This document shows positions 7,787 through 53,474 of a stretch of DNA of 64,000 nucleotides, in pieces. The notes under the pieces are model-generated. The model was not told where the DNA came from, did not search any database, and was given only the letters and a program-made list of their open reading frames with translations. The position numbers were made by a program, and so were the translations under genes. Source of the DNA: a phage; the sequence record PV874203.1, one strand, 5' to 3'. Each line of letters begins with the position of its first letter. The stretch's first letter is position 1.

Positions 7787-8818
7787 ATGGCATATGGAAT
7801 ATGGACACAACCAGTAGGGCCGGGGCCAGCAACCCCCGCTCCCTTGTTTATTGATAGCGGAAGTACTTTCCCTCAGTTCAAGAATAGCATAAGAGGGAGT
7901 TTTAACTTCAATGGAGCTGGGAGATCTTTCCCTATTAGTGGATGGGATGGTAGTGGTCAGATAGTTATTGTTCCCACTGGTTCTCTATGCTGGCAATGGG
8001 AAGTACCTCCTAACTTAGTCCCTGATGTTTATTGTGTAAATAACATCTATGTAGAAAATACCTCATCTTTTAGGGTGACTCTGAACCAGAATCCCGGCGG
8101 CAATCCTTTATTTGACTGTGGATTCAACGTCTACCAGATTTGGCCTAGAGCTGATAGAAACTATGGGATAACTTTCTCAAATACAGCAGACTACTTTTCC
8201 ATATCAGATGCTGGGGTTGTTGGTCAATGCATTTGGGCTTGGCAGGGGGTCATAAACAATGCCCTTCAGATACCAAATATCGGTGGGTTCAATATGACCA
8301 ATGCTGTTGTATTTGCTAATTGGTCTGATGGAGGACTTGGACTGTCTTATACCTCTGATGACAGAGTTATTCGTGTCTACCAGAACAGACCTTACGTAAA
8401 CGGCAACACTAATGAGGGTGGTTCTGTGTTTGCTAGAATTGCAGTATTCTGCAATGGGGCAGGTGTTCCGGAACACAATGGAGGTTTAAATATCTACTCT
8501 CCGGGAACCACTCAATGTGTATTTTCTACTAACAGAACACCTTTCACTGTGGATACTTTTATAGGCTCAGGAGGTGGTAACACTGGAATGGCGTACCCTA
8601 TGATACCTCTTACTTCTGGAATAGGTGCAATAAAAGGCCAAGGTAGTGGGTGGAGATACCAGCAAATGAGATCTCACACAATGAGTGGCTCTAGTATAGG
8701 AACTGGTTATGGAAGGTACTTATTTCAGTGGAATCAAAATTACGATCTAGGGGCTGACACTGTTGTTAACTTATCAGTTCCTGTAATAAACGCAGCTAAG
8801 GTTTTTGCTGGACTATAA
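7787..8818 (+). CDS. tail fibre / receptor-binding protein (distal part), hypothetical
   Basis: 343 aa, Gly/Asn/Ser-rich beta-type composition, coupled to the preceding fibre gene. Confidence 0.5.
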   Translation: MAYGIWTQPVGPGPATPAPLFIDSGSTFPQFKNSIRGSFNFNGAGRSFPISGWDGSGQIVIVPTGSLCWQWEVPPNLVPDVYCVNNIYVENTSSFRVTLNQNPGGNPLFDCGFNVYQIWPRADRNYGITFSNTADYFSISDAGVVGQCIWAWQGVINNALQIPNIGGFNMTNAVVFANWSDGGLGLSYTSDDRVIRVYQNRPYVNGNTNEGGSVFARIAVFCNGAGVPEHNGGLNIYSPGTTQCVFSTNRTPFTVDTFIGSGGGNTGMAYPMIPLTSGIGAIKGQGSGWRYQQMRSHTMSGSSIGTGYGRYLFQWNQNYDLGADTVVNLSVPVINAAKVFAGL

Positions 8819-8830
8819 CAAGGAGATATT

Positions 8831-9613
8831 ATGGCAATTAAAATGGGTATTGAAGAACTAGACCCAATGGTTCAACAGGCTTCAAAGAAGTATGGAATAC
8901 CAGCTGCTTTGATTCATGCTGTCATCCAAAGGGAGTCTAGTGGACGTCCTACAGTGGCTTCTGGAACTGGTCCTGTAGGTTTAATGCAGATCAGTAAAGG
9001 GTTGGCTAAAGATTATGGTTACAAACTAGAAGACAGACTTGACCCAGCAAAGAATATTGATATGGGTGCTCGCTATATCAGAGATAACCTGAAAGCTTTT
9101 AATGGTGATGTTAAGAAAGCAATGGTTGGTTATTCAGAAGGTATAGGTGGTGCTAAGCAGATGTTCGCTGGTAAGAAAGGGTTTACTCCTCAAGCTCTTG
9201 ACTCAATGAACAACAAGCACTTTCTCCCTTTCTATGGTGATGCAGCTTCTCAGATTGCTAACCCTGTTGGAGCTTTGCAAGCTGTTCAACCAGCTAACCA
9301 ATTTAGTCCGGATACTCTTGATAGGGAGAAGGCTGCACAAGCTCCCACTCAGGCAGAGATTGCTTCTTCTAAGACAGGTGCTTTAGGTGGTAATCCAGTA
9401 GAGTTTTACTCTGATGAAGTGCAGGAAGGTGAAGACCAGAAGCCTCAACAGAACTTTGGTAATGCAGTATTAGGAGTAGCTGCTATGCTTGCTGGTAAAC
9501 CTCCTACTTCTCAAACAGTTCAGAGAGTGAGTACACCTCATGCAGCAGGTTCTCAGTACAGCCCACAAACACAAGCAGTGCTTAGACGTCTGGCTAGCAT
9601 TGGTGTTAAGTAA
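8831..9613 (+). CDS. virion-associated lytic transglycosylase (SLT domain)
   Basis: AALIHAVIQRESSGRPTVASGTGPVGLMQIS matches the SLT catalytic motif (ES...GLMQ). Confidence 0.8.
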   Translation: MAIKMGIEELDPMVQQASKKYGIPAALIHAVIQRESSGRPTVASGTGPVGLMQISKGLAKDYGYKLEDRLDPAKNIDMGARYIRDNLKAFNGDVKKAMVGYSEGIGGAKQMFAGKKGFTPQALDSMNNKHFLPFYGDAASQIANPVGALQAVQPANQFSPDTLDREKAAQAPTQAEIASSKTGALGGNPVEFYSDEVQEGEDQKPQQNFGNAVLGVAAMLAGKPPTSQTVQRVSTPHAAGSQYSPQTQAVLRRLASIGVK

Positions 9614-26135: not shown

Positions 26136-26288
26136 TCAATGGGTATGCATCCAATTCAATCCAATCTGACAATCAGATGCCAGAGGACATTCCATGTTCA
26201 AATACTCACCAGCCTTCTTAACACAAAGCTCGGTGTGCTCTTTGAGTTTCTGTACATCGTTACGATTAGCTGAGAACTGACCCTCATC
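26136..26288 (-). CDS. DNA polymerase C-terminal segment (3' exon; motif C and C-terminus)
   Basis: Minus-strand translation (M)DEGQFSANRNDVQKLKEHTELCVKKAGEYLNMECPLASDCQIGLNWMHTH aligns with the end of T7-type DNA polymerases (HDE...GPNWAICH); not in the ORF track because under 60 aa. Confidence 0.55.
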   Translation of the reverse strand, partial: DEGQFSANRNDVQKLKEHTELCVKKAGEYLNMECPLASDCQIGLNWMHTH

Positions 26289-26895
26289 CATTTATGTTAT
26301 TCCCAAATTACTTCGGGTATCGGACTATATCATAACAGCATAGCTAATTTGCTGTTGTTGGCGCTTCGAGGGTTTCCCTGTTAACCCCCTACTCCCGCAG
26401 GATAGTCTCTACACTTTCCACTTTCGAATCCATCTACAAGCGATTCCAAAGCTCACACCAAACCTTTCTGCAAGAGCAACACCAGTACATTCATTATTAA
26501 GCCAGAACTCTTTAGCAGCATCCTGTCTTTCTCTGTTTCTACCAGTATTTGATTCTATGGCATGTGCACTACCTTCTAAGATCTCTAGATGATCAGTGTT
26601 ACAACATGCCCTATTCTTGCATTTGTGGTTAACTTCGTAGCCGTCAGGAATGTTTCCAAACTTCTCTTCCATGACATACCTATGATACATGACCCATTTG
26701 CCATTTATCACTTTTCGAAAGTATCCATCTTTATTTAATTTGTGTGAGATAGGGATGATACATCCTGTGCTAGTTGTTTCTAGCACTAGATCTTTCTTAG
26801 CCATATCACCTCCTAATAGCTTAGCTCGGTATTGCCCTCAACTTAATGGTCGGGTTTCACCGAGTTCACCAACTTTTACATGCACAATGAAGTTT
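26289..26895 (-). mobile_element. putative group I intron in the DNA polymerase gene, carrying an HNH endonuclease ORF
   Basis: Upstream exon would end in U (…GAUAUGCAU), intron ends in G (…AUAAAUG) before GAUGAG; 3' part contains AGACUAUCCUGCGGG and AUGAUAUAGUCCG, matching conserved group I R/S elements (GACUA/UAGUC = P7). Boundaries approximate. Confidence 0.55.
26409..26804 (-). CDS. HNH homing endonuclease (intron-encoded)
   Basis: HRYVMEEKFGNIPDGYEVNHKCKNRACCNTDHLE HNH motif; strong RBS TAGGAGGTGAT; sits between the two polymerase segments. Confidence 0.7.
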   Translation of the reverse strand: MAKKDLVLETTSTGCIIPISHKLNKDGYFRKVINGKWVMYHRYVMEEKFGNIPDGYEVNHKCKNRACCNTDHLEILEGSAHAIESNTGRNRERQDAAKEFWLNNECTGVALAERFGVSFGIACRWIRKWKV

Positions 26896-28587
26896 ATGCA
26901 TATCAATTACCTTAGCACAACGAACCTTATCTCTCTCAATCCACTTGTTAAGGAACATCATAGCATATTTCATAACAACAGCACCAGCACATTGCAGGAG
27001 AGTGTTAAGTGCTTTATGAACCATAACCTTACCAGTGGCATCTCGTCTCATTGTAATCTTACGACCATCAACACCAATCAAGTACCCTTGAGCAGCTTTC
27101 TCTGTCATACGATCAATGAGGATTGCAATACATGGGTTCTCTGCCAAGAAACGTGCTCGCATCACTGAACCTTCGTCAGCCCCACCACCTACAATTGAAC
27201 CGAGCTTAGCATCACCAGCACCATAGTTGAATGCGTAGATAAATGTCTTAGCGTTGTCACGAGTAGGAAGACCAGCAAGTTTCTGGTTGTGGGAGTGTAT
27301 ATCACCTTCAAGGAGAATATCACGATACATAATAGCAGAAGCTAAACCACGTTCTGCCAGAGCTTTCTTAGCTGGATTGTTTTCTTCTATTGCTTCAGCA
27401 AGCATATCCCTACACTCTTTAATGAGGTAGTGTGCAAGCATACGCAACTCTAACCCAGAACCATCATACCCCAAGAATACTTCTTTACCAGCGGGTATGT
27501 AATATTTGTAAGCACCTACAGGTTTGTCTTTCTTCCCCGGCTTACCTTTCTCATAAATTACGTTAGTACCTTTTCGTATATAACAACCATCAGGAACAAC
27601 GTTAGTAATAACGAAAGGACGAGAGTGATCATCATCTGAGTTATAGTCAGATTCAAACAAACTGCGACACTCATGACCAAACAAACCACGGGAGGGAATA
27701 TTAACCACGATACGATGTTTGAATCGAAAAGTCGGCGTAGCGCAGCTGTTAGCTTCTGCCGAAAGTTTACCATCTTCGCGCTCCTTTGCTATAAGTCCAC
27801 TAATAAGACCTAGCCTGTGAGCCGCTACAACGCGTCTCTTAAGCAAACTTCCGACACTCCCTAGCTCACCCCCTAACCCTTCTTCAAGAGTCTCCTCGAG
27901 GTTTGTAGGGGCTGTAGGCCACTTGTTTGAGGTAGCTAGTGCTATCTTAATCTCATCAAAAGTAATAGGTCTACGTCGGTTAGGATTTAAACCTAAACCA
28001 AACACATAAGCCTTCATGTAGTTCTTAGTTTTAAACCGAAAATGCTTCTCTAAGAACTTTCTAATATCAGCGTCAACCATCTCGGCTGTCTGCTTCTGTT
28101 TAGCATTACCTCGCATCCAAGCTGAATACCATGCTTGGTATGTTCCATACTTTCGCATATCTTTCTTGATTTCAAAAGTATTCCAAGGTTTCTTTGATAC
28201 ATTAAACTCTGGAGGAAGAAAACCCTCATCCATAAGGGCTTCTTTAACTCGGGCATCTTTCGATGGGTCAAAGGCTACGTACTCTACACAGGTGAATGCT
28301 CCACCAATGTCTTCTCTCTTAAGTCCAACCCTATCACAATAGGCTTGAGGCCACTTCTGTAAAGCTCCAGACTTCTTAAATGGCTTCATATAAGTAGAGC
28401 CATCTAATCTCATCTTAGGTAAGAGAGGAATCAGTTCTTTGTCAATATTAACAATAATCTCTTTAAGGAGGTGAACATACCACCGAGCATTTCTTCGGTT
28501 GAAACTCACTCCGTGCTTCGCTTGCTTAGAGATTATATCAGCGACAGTCATCTCTGTCAAAAATGGGAGAGCGTCCGGGTTGCTCAC
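26866..28587 (-). CDS. DNA polymerase, family A (T7 gp5-like), polymerase domain; ORF runs into the intron
   Basis: RDNAKTFIYAFNYGAGDAKLG matches motif B of T7-type polymerases; ORF ends before motif C, which is supplied by 26136..26288. If spliced, the exon ends near 26896. Confidence 0.8.
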   Translation of the reverse strand: MSNPDALPFLTEMTVADIISKQAKHGVSFNRRNARWYVHLLKEIIVNIDKELIPLLPKMRLDGSTYMKPFKKSGALQKWPQAYCDRVGLKREDIGGAFTCVEYVAFDPSKDARVKEALMDEGFLPPEFNVSKKPWNTFEIKKDMRKYGTYQAWYSAWMRGNAKQKQTAEMVDADIRKFLEKHFRFKTKNYMKAYVFGLGLNPNRRRPITFDEIKIALATSNKWPTAPTNLEETLEEGLGGELGSVGSLLKRRVVAAHRLGLISGLIAKEREDGKLSAEANSCATPTFRFKHRIVVNIPSRGLFGHECRSLFESDYNSDDDHSRPFVITNVVPDGCYIRKGTNVIYEKGKPGKKDKPVGAYKYYIPAGKEVFLGYDGSGLELRMLAHYLIKECRDMLAEAIEENNPAKKALAERGLASAIMYRDILLEGDIHSHNQKLAGLPTRDNAKTFIYAFNYGAGDAKLGSIVGGGADEGSVMRARFLAENPCIAILIDRMTEKAAQGYLIGVDGRKITMRRDATGKVMVHKALNTLLQCAGAVVMKYAMMFLNKWIERDKVRCAKVIDMHKLHCACKSW

Positions 28588-53398: not shown

Positions 53399-53474
53399 TG
53401 GTGCACCCTACAGGACTCGAACCTGTAACCAACGACTTAGAAGGTCGCTGCTCTGTCCATTGAGCTAAGGGTGC
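53399..53474 (-). tRNA. tRNA-Arg (anticodon UCU), CCA encoded
   Basis: Minus-strand cloverleaf: 7-bp acceptor stem GCACCCU/AGGGUGC, D-arm GCUC/GAGC, anticodon loop CUUCUAA, T-arm ACAGG-UUCGAGU-CCUGU, 3' ACCA. Confidence 0.85.

Follow-up and report, generated by a model that had tools for sequence, protein, structure and literature searches.

A putative group I intron with an HNH endonuclease gene within catalytic motif C of a phiEco32-like coliphage DNA polymerase gene

Introduction

How can a DNA polymerase gene yield a complete enzyme when its reading frame breaks off within catalytic motif C? This question is raised by the phage sequence record PV874203.1, of which we analysed a stretch of 64,000 nt (hereafter the window). 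There, an open reading frame (ORF) for a family A DNA polymerase is followed by an HNH endonuclease gene and then by a 51-aa frame that resembles the end of a polymerase. A previous reading by a model, made from the letters and a list of ORFs without database searches (the sequence-only reading), had proposed that the intervening DNA is a group I intron carrying the HNH gene and that motif C is rebuilt by splicing, the alternative being a gene truly split by a free-standing HNH gene. We have followed up this proposal by comparison with uninterrupted alleles and homologous inserts, by profile searches, and by an analysis of covariation. We conclude that the polymerase gene is very likely interrupted by a 607-nt group I intron of IA2 type, which carries an HNH endonuclease gene and would be spliced from one pre-mRNA. 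The proposal is supported in silico, splicing itself being a step that we infer.

Results

The limits of the insert come from comparison with Shigella phage SGF2, whose polymerase is encoded by a single, uninterrupted coding sequence (CDS) of 614 codons. Relative to that gene, the window carries 607 additional nt (26895..26289, on the minus strand like every gene in this region of the window) between T26896 and G26288. Their conceptual removal gives a polymerase of 614 aa, which aligns with that of SGF2 without a gap and is identical to it at 609 of 614 positions (99%). The predicted spliced junction reads ...GATATGCAT|GATGAGGGT..., and the intron-less polymerase of phiEco32 or SGF2 reads ...ATTGATATGCACGATGAGGG... 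at the insertion site. The break separates the codon for His from that for Asp in the catalytic HDE triad, so that motif C, divided in this way, is whole again only after exact removal of the 607 nt. Left unspliced, the frame of exon 1 runs through nine intron codons (KLHCACKSW) to a stop at 26866..26868. The Pfam profile DNA_pol_A matches the resulting 573-aa ORF with 51.4 bits over positions 143-334 of 381, and the spliced product with 80.8 bits over positions 143-380; the latter also aligns with T7 gp5 to the last residue, mHDEgq lying over vHDEiq of T7. These results bear out what the sequence-only reading had said of the exons, namely that the polymerase ORF stops before motif C, that the 51-aa frame is the C-terminal end of the polymerase, and that joining the two recreates HDE. 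The insert that it had placed at 26289..26895, after a U and ending in G, has exactly these boundaries, and alignment with uninterrupted relatives fixes the exon ends at H|DE. The 614-aa polymerase aligns with residues ~290-698 of T7 gp5 and lacks a 3'-5' exonuclease domain; across the group, exonuclease subunits are encoded by separate genes, according to a review of Kuravirus (PMC9965538).

The insert can be folded as a group I intron from P1 to P10 (Table 1), a fold that we read by eye and then checked by script. P2 is absent, J1/3 measuring 6 nt, and the internal guide sequence is CAUUGUGCAU. The R- and S-like elements to which the sequence-only reading had drawn attention are present and form P7. 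The register of P6 and P6a was taken from the Rfam alignment of another intron in L050, a T7-like contig described below. A different P6, with CUA/UAG and GCU/AGU pairs right after P4, was rejected since it fails in homologues. An Rfam search of the insert, one of the checks named in the sequence-only reading, gave group I as the sole match: RF00028 (Intron_gpI) is found at 26301..26488 on the minus strand, with E=4e-4 in 4 kb and E=0.0068 in the whole window. The score of 27.2 bits lies below the gathering score of 50, which is a curated detection criterion and holds no biochemical definition. The Rfam alignment is right for P7, the 3' strand of P3, P8, the 3' strand of P7, and P9. The score is low because only the 3' core of the intron and part of the HNH ORF are taken in; the true 5' half lies ~400 nt upstream, past the HNH ORF, and the corresponding half of the model is therefore made to fit ORF sequence. 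The gathering score is exceeded, with 61.2 bits, by a homologue without an ORF that occupies the same H|DE site in L050.

Table 1. Coordinates of the interrupted polymerase gene and of the predicted intron fold, as positions in the window
Feature	Position	Strand	Remarks
Polymerase ORF	26866..28587	-	573 aa; ends ...AKVIDMHKLHCACKSW, then stop; from the ORF list
Exon 1, family A DNA polymerase	26896..28587	-	564 codons; ends ...GAT ATG CAT = D M H
Putative group I (IA2-type) intron	26289..26895	-	Starts AAACUUCAUU (AAACUU) after exon U26896; ends ...AUAAAUG, terminal G26289
Exon 2, polymerase	26136..26288	-	DEGQFSANRNDVQKLKEHTELCVKKAGEYLNMECPLASDCQIGLNWMHTH, then stop; starts GAT GAG
51-aa ORF	26136..26291	-	MDEGQF...GLNWMHTH; first codon AUG = last three intron bases
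HNH endonuclease gene	26409..26804	-	131 aa, in P6a loop; Pfam HNH_3 E=7.6e-12
Ribosome-binding site (RBS) of HNH ORF	26809..26814	-	AGGAGG, 4 nt to ATG
P1 and internal guide	26880..26901	-	Exon AUGCAU (26901..26896) / guide GUGCAU (26885..26880); U·G wobble at 5' splice site
P10	26889..26886 / 26288..26285	-	CAUU / exon 2 GAUG; from comparative alignment
P3	26867..26873 / 26357..26363	-	GUUGGUG / CGCCAAC; 5/7 pairs compensatory across homologues
P4	26859..26864 / 26825..26830	-	CUCGGU / ACCGAG; encloses P5
P5 hairpin	26835..26854	-	Inside P4 (26825..26864)
P6 and P6a, 5' side	26816..26825	-	P6 GC, UAAG, P6a CUAU
P6/P6a, 3' partners	26413..26414; 26418..26421	-	GU; GUGG; covariation, register from L050 Rfam alignment
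Catalytic 3' core	26323..26407	-	Order P7 5', P7.1, GUA, P7.2, P3 3', P8, P7 3'
P7	26402..26407 / 26323..26328	-	GACUAU / AUAGUC; R-like AGACUAU and S-like AUGAUAUAGUCC elements
P7.1	26394..26401	-	CCUGCGGG
GUA linker	26390..26392	-	Joins P7.1 and P7.2
P7.2	26368..26389	-	Hairpin, 3' of GUA linker
P8 hairpin	26334..26356	-	AACAGC / GCUGUU
P9 hairpin	26302..26317	-	CCCGAA-GUAA-UUUGGG
3' tail	within 26289..26317, after P9	-	AAUAACAUAAAUG, ending in terminal G26289

Homologous inserts were retrieved by sensitive blastn, at 64-68% identity and mostly over ~50-99% of the length of the insert. Their host gene is the polymerase gene, in many T7-like phages (13a, K1F, JeanTinguely, Sekstaphage-1, and others), as well as in Vibrio phage Vp_R1 (Grimontviridae), Aeromonas PT2, Edwardsiella DT115P1, and Klebsiella RCIP0053, and the junction in all of them is ...GCAU|GAUGA..., which again is H|DE. 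For 13a, K1F, and JeanTinguely the depositors give a joined CDS, which implies that the intron was recognised there. In its non-coding parts, the window copy is 66-80% identical to the introns of 13a, K1F, JeanTinguely, and Sekstaphage-1. When IMG/VR was scanned for the R...S core, 56 loci were found, two of which (L050 and L043) hold a 225-nt, ORF-less version at the same H|DE site. The polymerase gene of L050 (contig 3300045988_051581) has two group I introns (8689-8917 and 9330-9587), and the one other than the H|DE intron, ~400 nt upstream of it and different from it, scores 69.1 bits. In L021 (contig 3300045988_126022) there is a homologous intron of ~419 nt with a partly deleted HNH ORF, apparently an intermediate between the ~600-nt ORF-containing and the 225-nt ORF-less forms.

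Covariation was assessed in 10 homologues, from which the ORFs had been removed and which were aligned with MAFFT without structural information. Standard pairs make up 99.5% of the 400 cells for the proposed pairings, against 31-49% for controls slid by 1-3 columns; 13 of the 40 pairs are changed on both sides, and the observed covariation score was reached in 0/500 shuffles. There are five compensatory positions in P3 and four in P9. P8 and P9 covary almost throughout, the sequence of P8 differing in nearly each lineage while its pairing is always kept, and the P8, P7.1, and P7.2 hairpins are found in all homologues. P6a appears as CUAU/GUGG, CCAU/AUGG, or ACUG/CAGU, and covaries completely in DT115P1 (ACUG/CAGU against CUAU/GUGG). 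The features of the insert are not due to chance, given the gapless 99%-identical frame, the Rfam E values, and covariation beyond that of the controls.

The pairings between intron and exons are affected in the same way. The U·G pair of P1 is invariant (10/10 homologues) and the distal pair covaries between A-U and G-C, so that the guide tracks the exon: AUGCAU goes with GUGCAU in the Kuravirus-like and Vibrio copies, and GUGCAU with GUGCAC in the T7-like ones. Likewise, in P10, the exon 2 sequence GAC of Vp_R1 is matched by GUU in the guide. Such co-variation would be hard to account for if selection did not act on the pairing of exon and guide, and thereby on splicing. The HNH ORF ends sooner in DT115P1 and RCIP0053, but the downstream GGUGUAG is kept there, which points to a constraint on the RNA and not on coding. 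These two introns also have an extra hairpin, ACGUCGA-GUAA-UUGACGU at intron nt ~17-34, in place of the 6-nt J1/3; it amounts to a P2 that is specific to this lineage, the intron family being otherwise without one.

The HNH ORF with a strong RBS that had been predicted at 26409..26804 is confirmed by its Pfam match and by the position of AGGAGG (Table 1). The HNH_3 match spans residues 40-76, and zf-His_Me_endon is matched with E=0.0012. The protein is 54-61% identical to the intron ORFs of the T7-like, Vibrio, Aeromonas, Edwardsiella, and Klebsiella homologues, and a search of 5.8 billion proteins gave 69 homologues. Two "NCBI" matches on contigs of less than 1 kb, considered as possible records of the intron-bearing phages ΦI and W31, were rejected as metagenome contigs. 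The ORF and the ribozyme share sequence: the last 13 nt of the ORF (GUGG AAA GU GUAG) also supply the 3' strands of P6a and of P6 as well as J6/7, and its stop codon abuts P7. Moreover, there is an alternative hairpin (AGCUAU/AUGGCU, 26792..26822, minus strand, -5.3 kcal/mol), whose stem takes in the start codon of the HNH ORF and whose loop contains the RBS; this hairpin cannot form together with P6a (CUAU/GUGG). It is similar in SU7 and Vp_R1 and weak in the T7-like copies. Given the shared strands and this hairpin, one would expect endonuclease translation and ribozyme folding to interfere with each other, an effect that has reportedly been studied for T4 td/I-TevI. A phiEco32-type promoter motif (TAATGTATA) has no match in the intron, and its 25 matches in the window, vs 20 expected, show no enrichment.

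By megablast, the window falls among the phiEco32-like coliphages (Gordonclarkvirinae: Kuravirus, Suseptimavirus, and relatives). The polymerase region is matched by 102 records, 11 of which (8 distinct phages) cover the insert; the remaining ~90 align in two pieces, and the polymerase gene is therefore uninterrupted in them. The carriers belong to at least two genera, and all eight have a full-length HNH ORF. Phages with an overall identity of only ~80% in the polymerase region (exons plus intron) are 96-100% identical to each other in the non-coding parts of the intron. Intron-less junctions read ATGCAY|GATGAR. The His codon at the junction is CAC in 6/8 of the intron-less kuravirus-like alleles that we examined and CAU in all carriers, where the U·G pair of P1 requires it. 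Patchy carriage in at least two genera, near-identical non-coding parts, and the CAC/CAU pattern are consistent with mobility and with gain and loss of the putative intron.

Public records present the locus differently. Those of PE006, SU7, and ECBP2 show an HNH gene with a "DNA polymerase" CDS on each side, and in these as in matches H3-H6 and H11 there is no annotated intron or joined CDS. The record of pEC-N1203-2Af.1 and others like it show two polymerase genes and an HNH or homing endonuclease, or else hypothetical proteins. The HNH CDS of SU7 is called from an upstream start and so overlaps exon 1. We found no report in the literature of an intron in phiEco32, Kuravirus, ECBP2, or SU7, and the word "intron" is absent from the 2023 Kuravirus review (PMC9965538).

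Discussion

The reading that best accounts for this locus is a polymerase gene with a group I intron, for which we propose the following course. One pre-mRNA would hold both exons and the 607-nt intron, folded as a canonical ribozyme. The guide CAUUGUGCAU would align the exons by pairing with exon 1 in P1, where a U·G wobble marks the 5' splice site, and with the GAUG of exon 2 in P10. In a transesterification of two steps, the first attack, after U26896, would be made by an external guanosine bound in P7; the 3'-OH of exon 1 would then attack after G26289, joining U26896 to G26288. The ligated ...ATG CAT/GAT GAG... would encode the 614-aa family A polymerase with motif C intact, whereas unspliced RNA would give a 573-aa product without the catalytic Asp and Glu of that motif. 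By analogy with I-TslI of phage ΦI (see below), the HNH protein would nick or cut intron-less alleles near the site in mixed infections, and repair would copy the intron in.

Several points weigh against this reading. Splicing, like the activity of the endonuclease, is deduced for this phage from sequence and predicted structure. The Rfam score of the window copy, 27.2 bits, is below the threshold of 50. P4 and P7 are invariant and hence provide no covariation evidence in either direction. The AUG formed by the last three intron bases is in frame with exon 2, so that separate translation of exon 2 is formally possible. Finally, the link to the ΦI and W31 introns discussed below (AY769989 and AY769990; endonuclease I-TslI, AAV53690) draws on homologues in T7-like genomes and on the secondary description in PMC3428280.

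Four other explanations of this locus differ in how well they stand up. The first, which we regard as improbable, retains splicing but adds a second mode, in which the 51-aa piece is made separately and complements the 573-aa polymerase in trans when splicing fails, or in which translation and splicing form a switch. In the switch variant, ribosomes translating the HNH ORF would open up the core of the ribozyme, the 5' strand of P6a pairing either with the HNH start codon or with the end of the ORF. The element would then be more than a passive, selfish intron.

According to the second, rated as very improbable, the polymerase gene is truly split by a free-standing HNH gene, and polypeptides of 573 and 51 aa assemble after translation. 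This agrees with the way in which PE006, SU7, and ECBP2 are annotated, as well as with an RBS marked by the SU7 depositors upstream of the junction AUG. A precedent is said to exist in some T4-related phages, in which, as Petrov et al. reportedly described in 2010, PolB is split by an insertion and made as two polypeptides. However, the 211 non-coding nt that flank the HNH ORF fold into P1-P10, with compensatory changes that extend to the pairings with both exons, and a free-standing gene would need no conserved ribozyme around it. The break, moreover, lies inside the catalytic triad. The junction AUG is seen in the window, in SU7 and ECBP2, in DT115P1, and in several metagenomic copies, but introns elsewhere end in AAAG, UAAG, AUAG, or AUUG; the T7-like copies end in AAAG and have no start codon ahead of exon 2. 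No Shine-Dalgarno sequence precedes the AUG in the window sequence (UUUGGGAAUAACAUAAAUG). We regard this AUG as incidental, since it is non-conserved and lacks a Shine-Dalgarno sequence, and it explains why gene callers find a 51-aa "DNA polymerase" ORF. Nor do related phages encode the C-terminal segment as a separate conserved gene, whose presence in them the sequence-only reading had named as evidence that would speak against it: the T7-like relatives have the AAAG end and a joined CDS.

The third alternative, of the same low probability as the second, is a decayed, non-splicing intron or endonuclease cassette, with the polymerase gene reduced to a pseudogene. The sub-threshold Rfam score would fit this, as would a P7.2 that is shorter than in the T7-like homologues. 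Against it, all core helices are intact, and neither the full-length HNH ORF in the eight carriers nor the near identity of the non-coding parts between phages that have diverged in the polymerase region looks like decay. Both exons are in frame and 99% identical to a functional-looking intron-less allele. Furthermore, this is the only polymerase gene that we examined in the window, and the Kuravirus review lists one polymerase for the group (PMC9965538). The last alternative, an intein or other in-frame protein-splicing element, shares with the insert the interruption of a highly conserved catalytic motif and, as in some inteins, an HNH-type endonuclease, but it can be dismissed because the length of 607 nt is not divisible by three, the frame of exon 1 meets a stop 9 codons beyond the junction, and the HNH ORF is served by a separate RBS and start codon. 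A group II intron was also rejected on the sequence, the sole Rfam match being to group I.

The group I intron favoured here has close counterparts. In E. coli Pol I, motif C is H881-D882-E883. The T7-like phages ΦI and W31 have introns in gene 5, at site 881 by the numbering of E. coli Pol I; in the available description, which summarises Bonocora & Shub (2004), they are self-splicing, of subgroup IA2, without P2, with P7.1 and P7.2 linked by G-U-A and an HNH ORF in P6a (PMC3428280). Since site 881 lies within motif C, the insertion site, subgroup features, and ORF position of these introns all equal those of the window intron. What they have in common with it, as far as that description goes, is thus a family A polymerase gene interrupted at H|D (site 881), no P2, P7.1-GUA-P7.2, and in P6a an HNH ORF with its own RBS. 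The endonuclease of ΦI, I-TslI, is given as a nicking HNH homing endonuclease with a 9-bp core site in the accounts of Bonocora & Shub's work (2004, 2009) within PMC8136825 and PMC8845596. The introns of the T7-like genomes of 13a, K1F, JeanTinguely, and Sekstaphage-1, whose HNH proteins are 54-60% identical to that of the window, differ from the window copy in that the latter has a longer P5 and a shorter P7.2, a guide that fits exon AUGCAU and not GUGCAU, and AUG instead of AAG at its 3' end. The host also differs, being a phiEco32-like (Gordonclarkvirinae) polymerase that is weakly similar to T7 gp5 and lacks the exonuclease domain. By its site, its architecture, and its homology to the T7-like introns, the predicted intron matches the ΦI/W31 lineage.

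Other phage introns are more distant. The td, nrdB, and sunY introns of T4 are group IA2 introns with intron-encoded endonucleases. They too are self-splicing ribozymes in essential genes of nucleotide or DNA metabolism of a virulent coliphage, with the endonuclease ORF looped out from a peripheral helix and overlapping core pairings; by contrast, their host genes are others and their endonucleases (I-TevI, I-TevII) are GIY-YIG and not HNH proteins. SPO1, SP82, Bastille, and cyanophage Pf-WMP3 share with the window group I introns in family A polymerase genes encoding HNH nicking endonucleases, namely I-HmuI, I-HmuII, I-BasI, and I-PfoP3I (PMC3428280). These introns differ in lying at site 674 (E. 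coli numbering), in the fingers subdomain, instead of at site 881 in motif C, and the ORF of the SPO1 intron is in P8 (PMC3073962, Table 1), that of the window in P6a.

Intron class, subgroup, site, and endonuclease family have thus been published before, and no new mechanism or kind of element is involved. It is the presence of the intron in phiEco32-like phages that appears to be unreported, and the public records are mis-annotated. In PE006, SU7, ECBP2, and pEC-N1203-2Af.1, the correct annotation would be a single, joined CDS that contains an intron. The error is inherited by gene-content comparisons and by the taxonomy of kuravirus-like candidates for phage therapy. The homologues place what would be one mobile intron lineage at the same His|Asp boundary in at least three phage lineages (Autographiviridae, Gordonclarkvirinae, and Grimontviridae), whose polymerases are otherwise distantly related, so that the homing element seems to follow an invariant catalytic motif across families. 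This offers a natural example of the spread of a homing element across families and of a guide sequence that co-evolves with the exon of each host.

Two minor observations were made along the way. First, other interrupted phage genes, in Rhizobium phage RHph_N3_13 (701-762) and Aeromonas phage phiA047 (701-759), contain stretches with 82-83% identity to nt 17-77 of the intron (P3-P5-P4). One of the two is in a ribonucleotide reductase gene annotated as N- and C-terminal "partial" proteins, and the other adjoins a fragment of the terminase large subunit and an HNH gene; both are probably further unannotated group I introns. Second, a tRNA gene lies at 53402..53474 of the window on the minus strand (Rfam tRNA, 71.9 bits), and a sub-threshold match to "Plastid-ycf2" opposite it is probably a mirror image of the tRNA.

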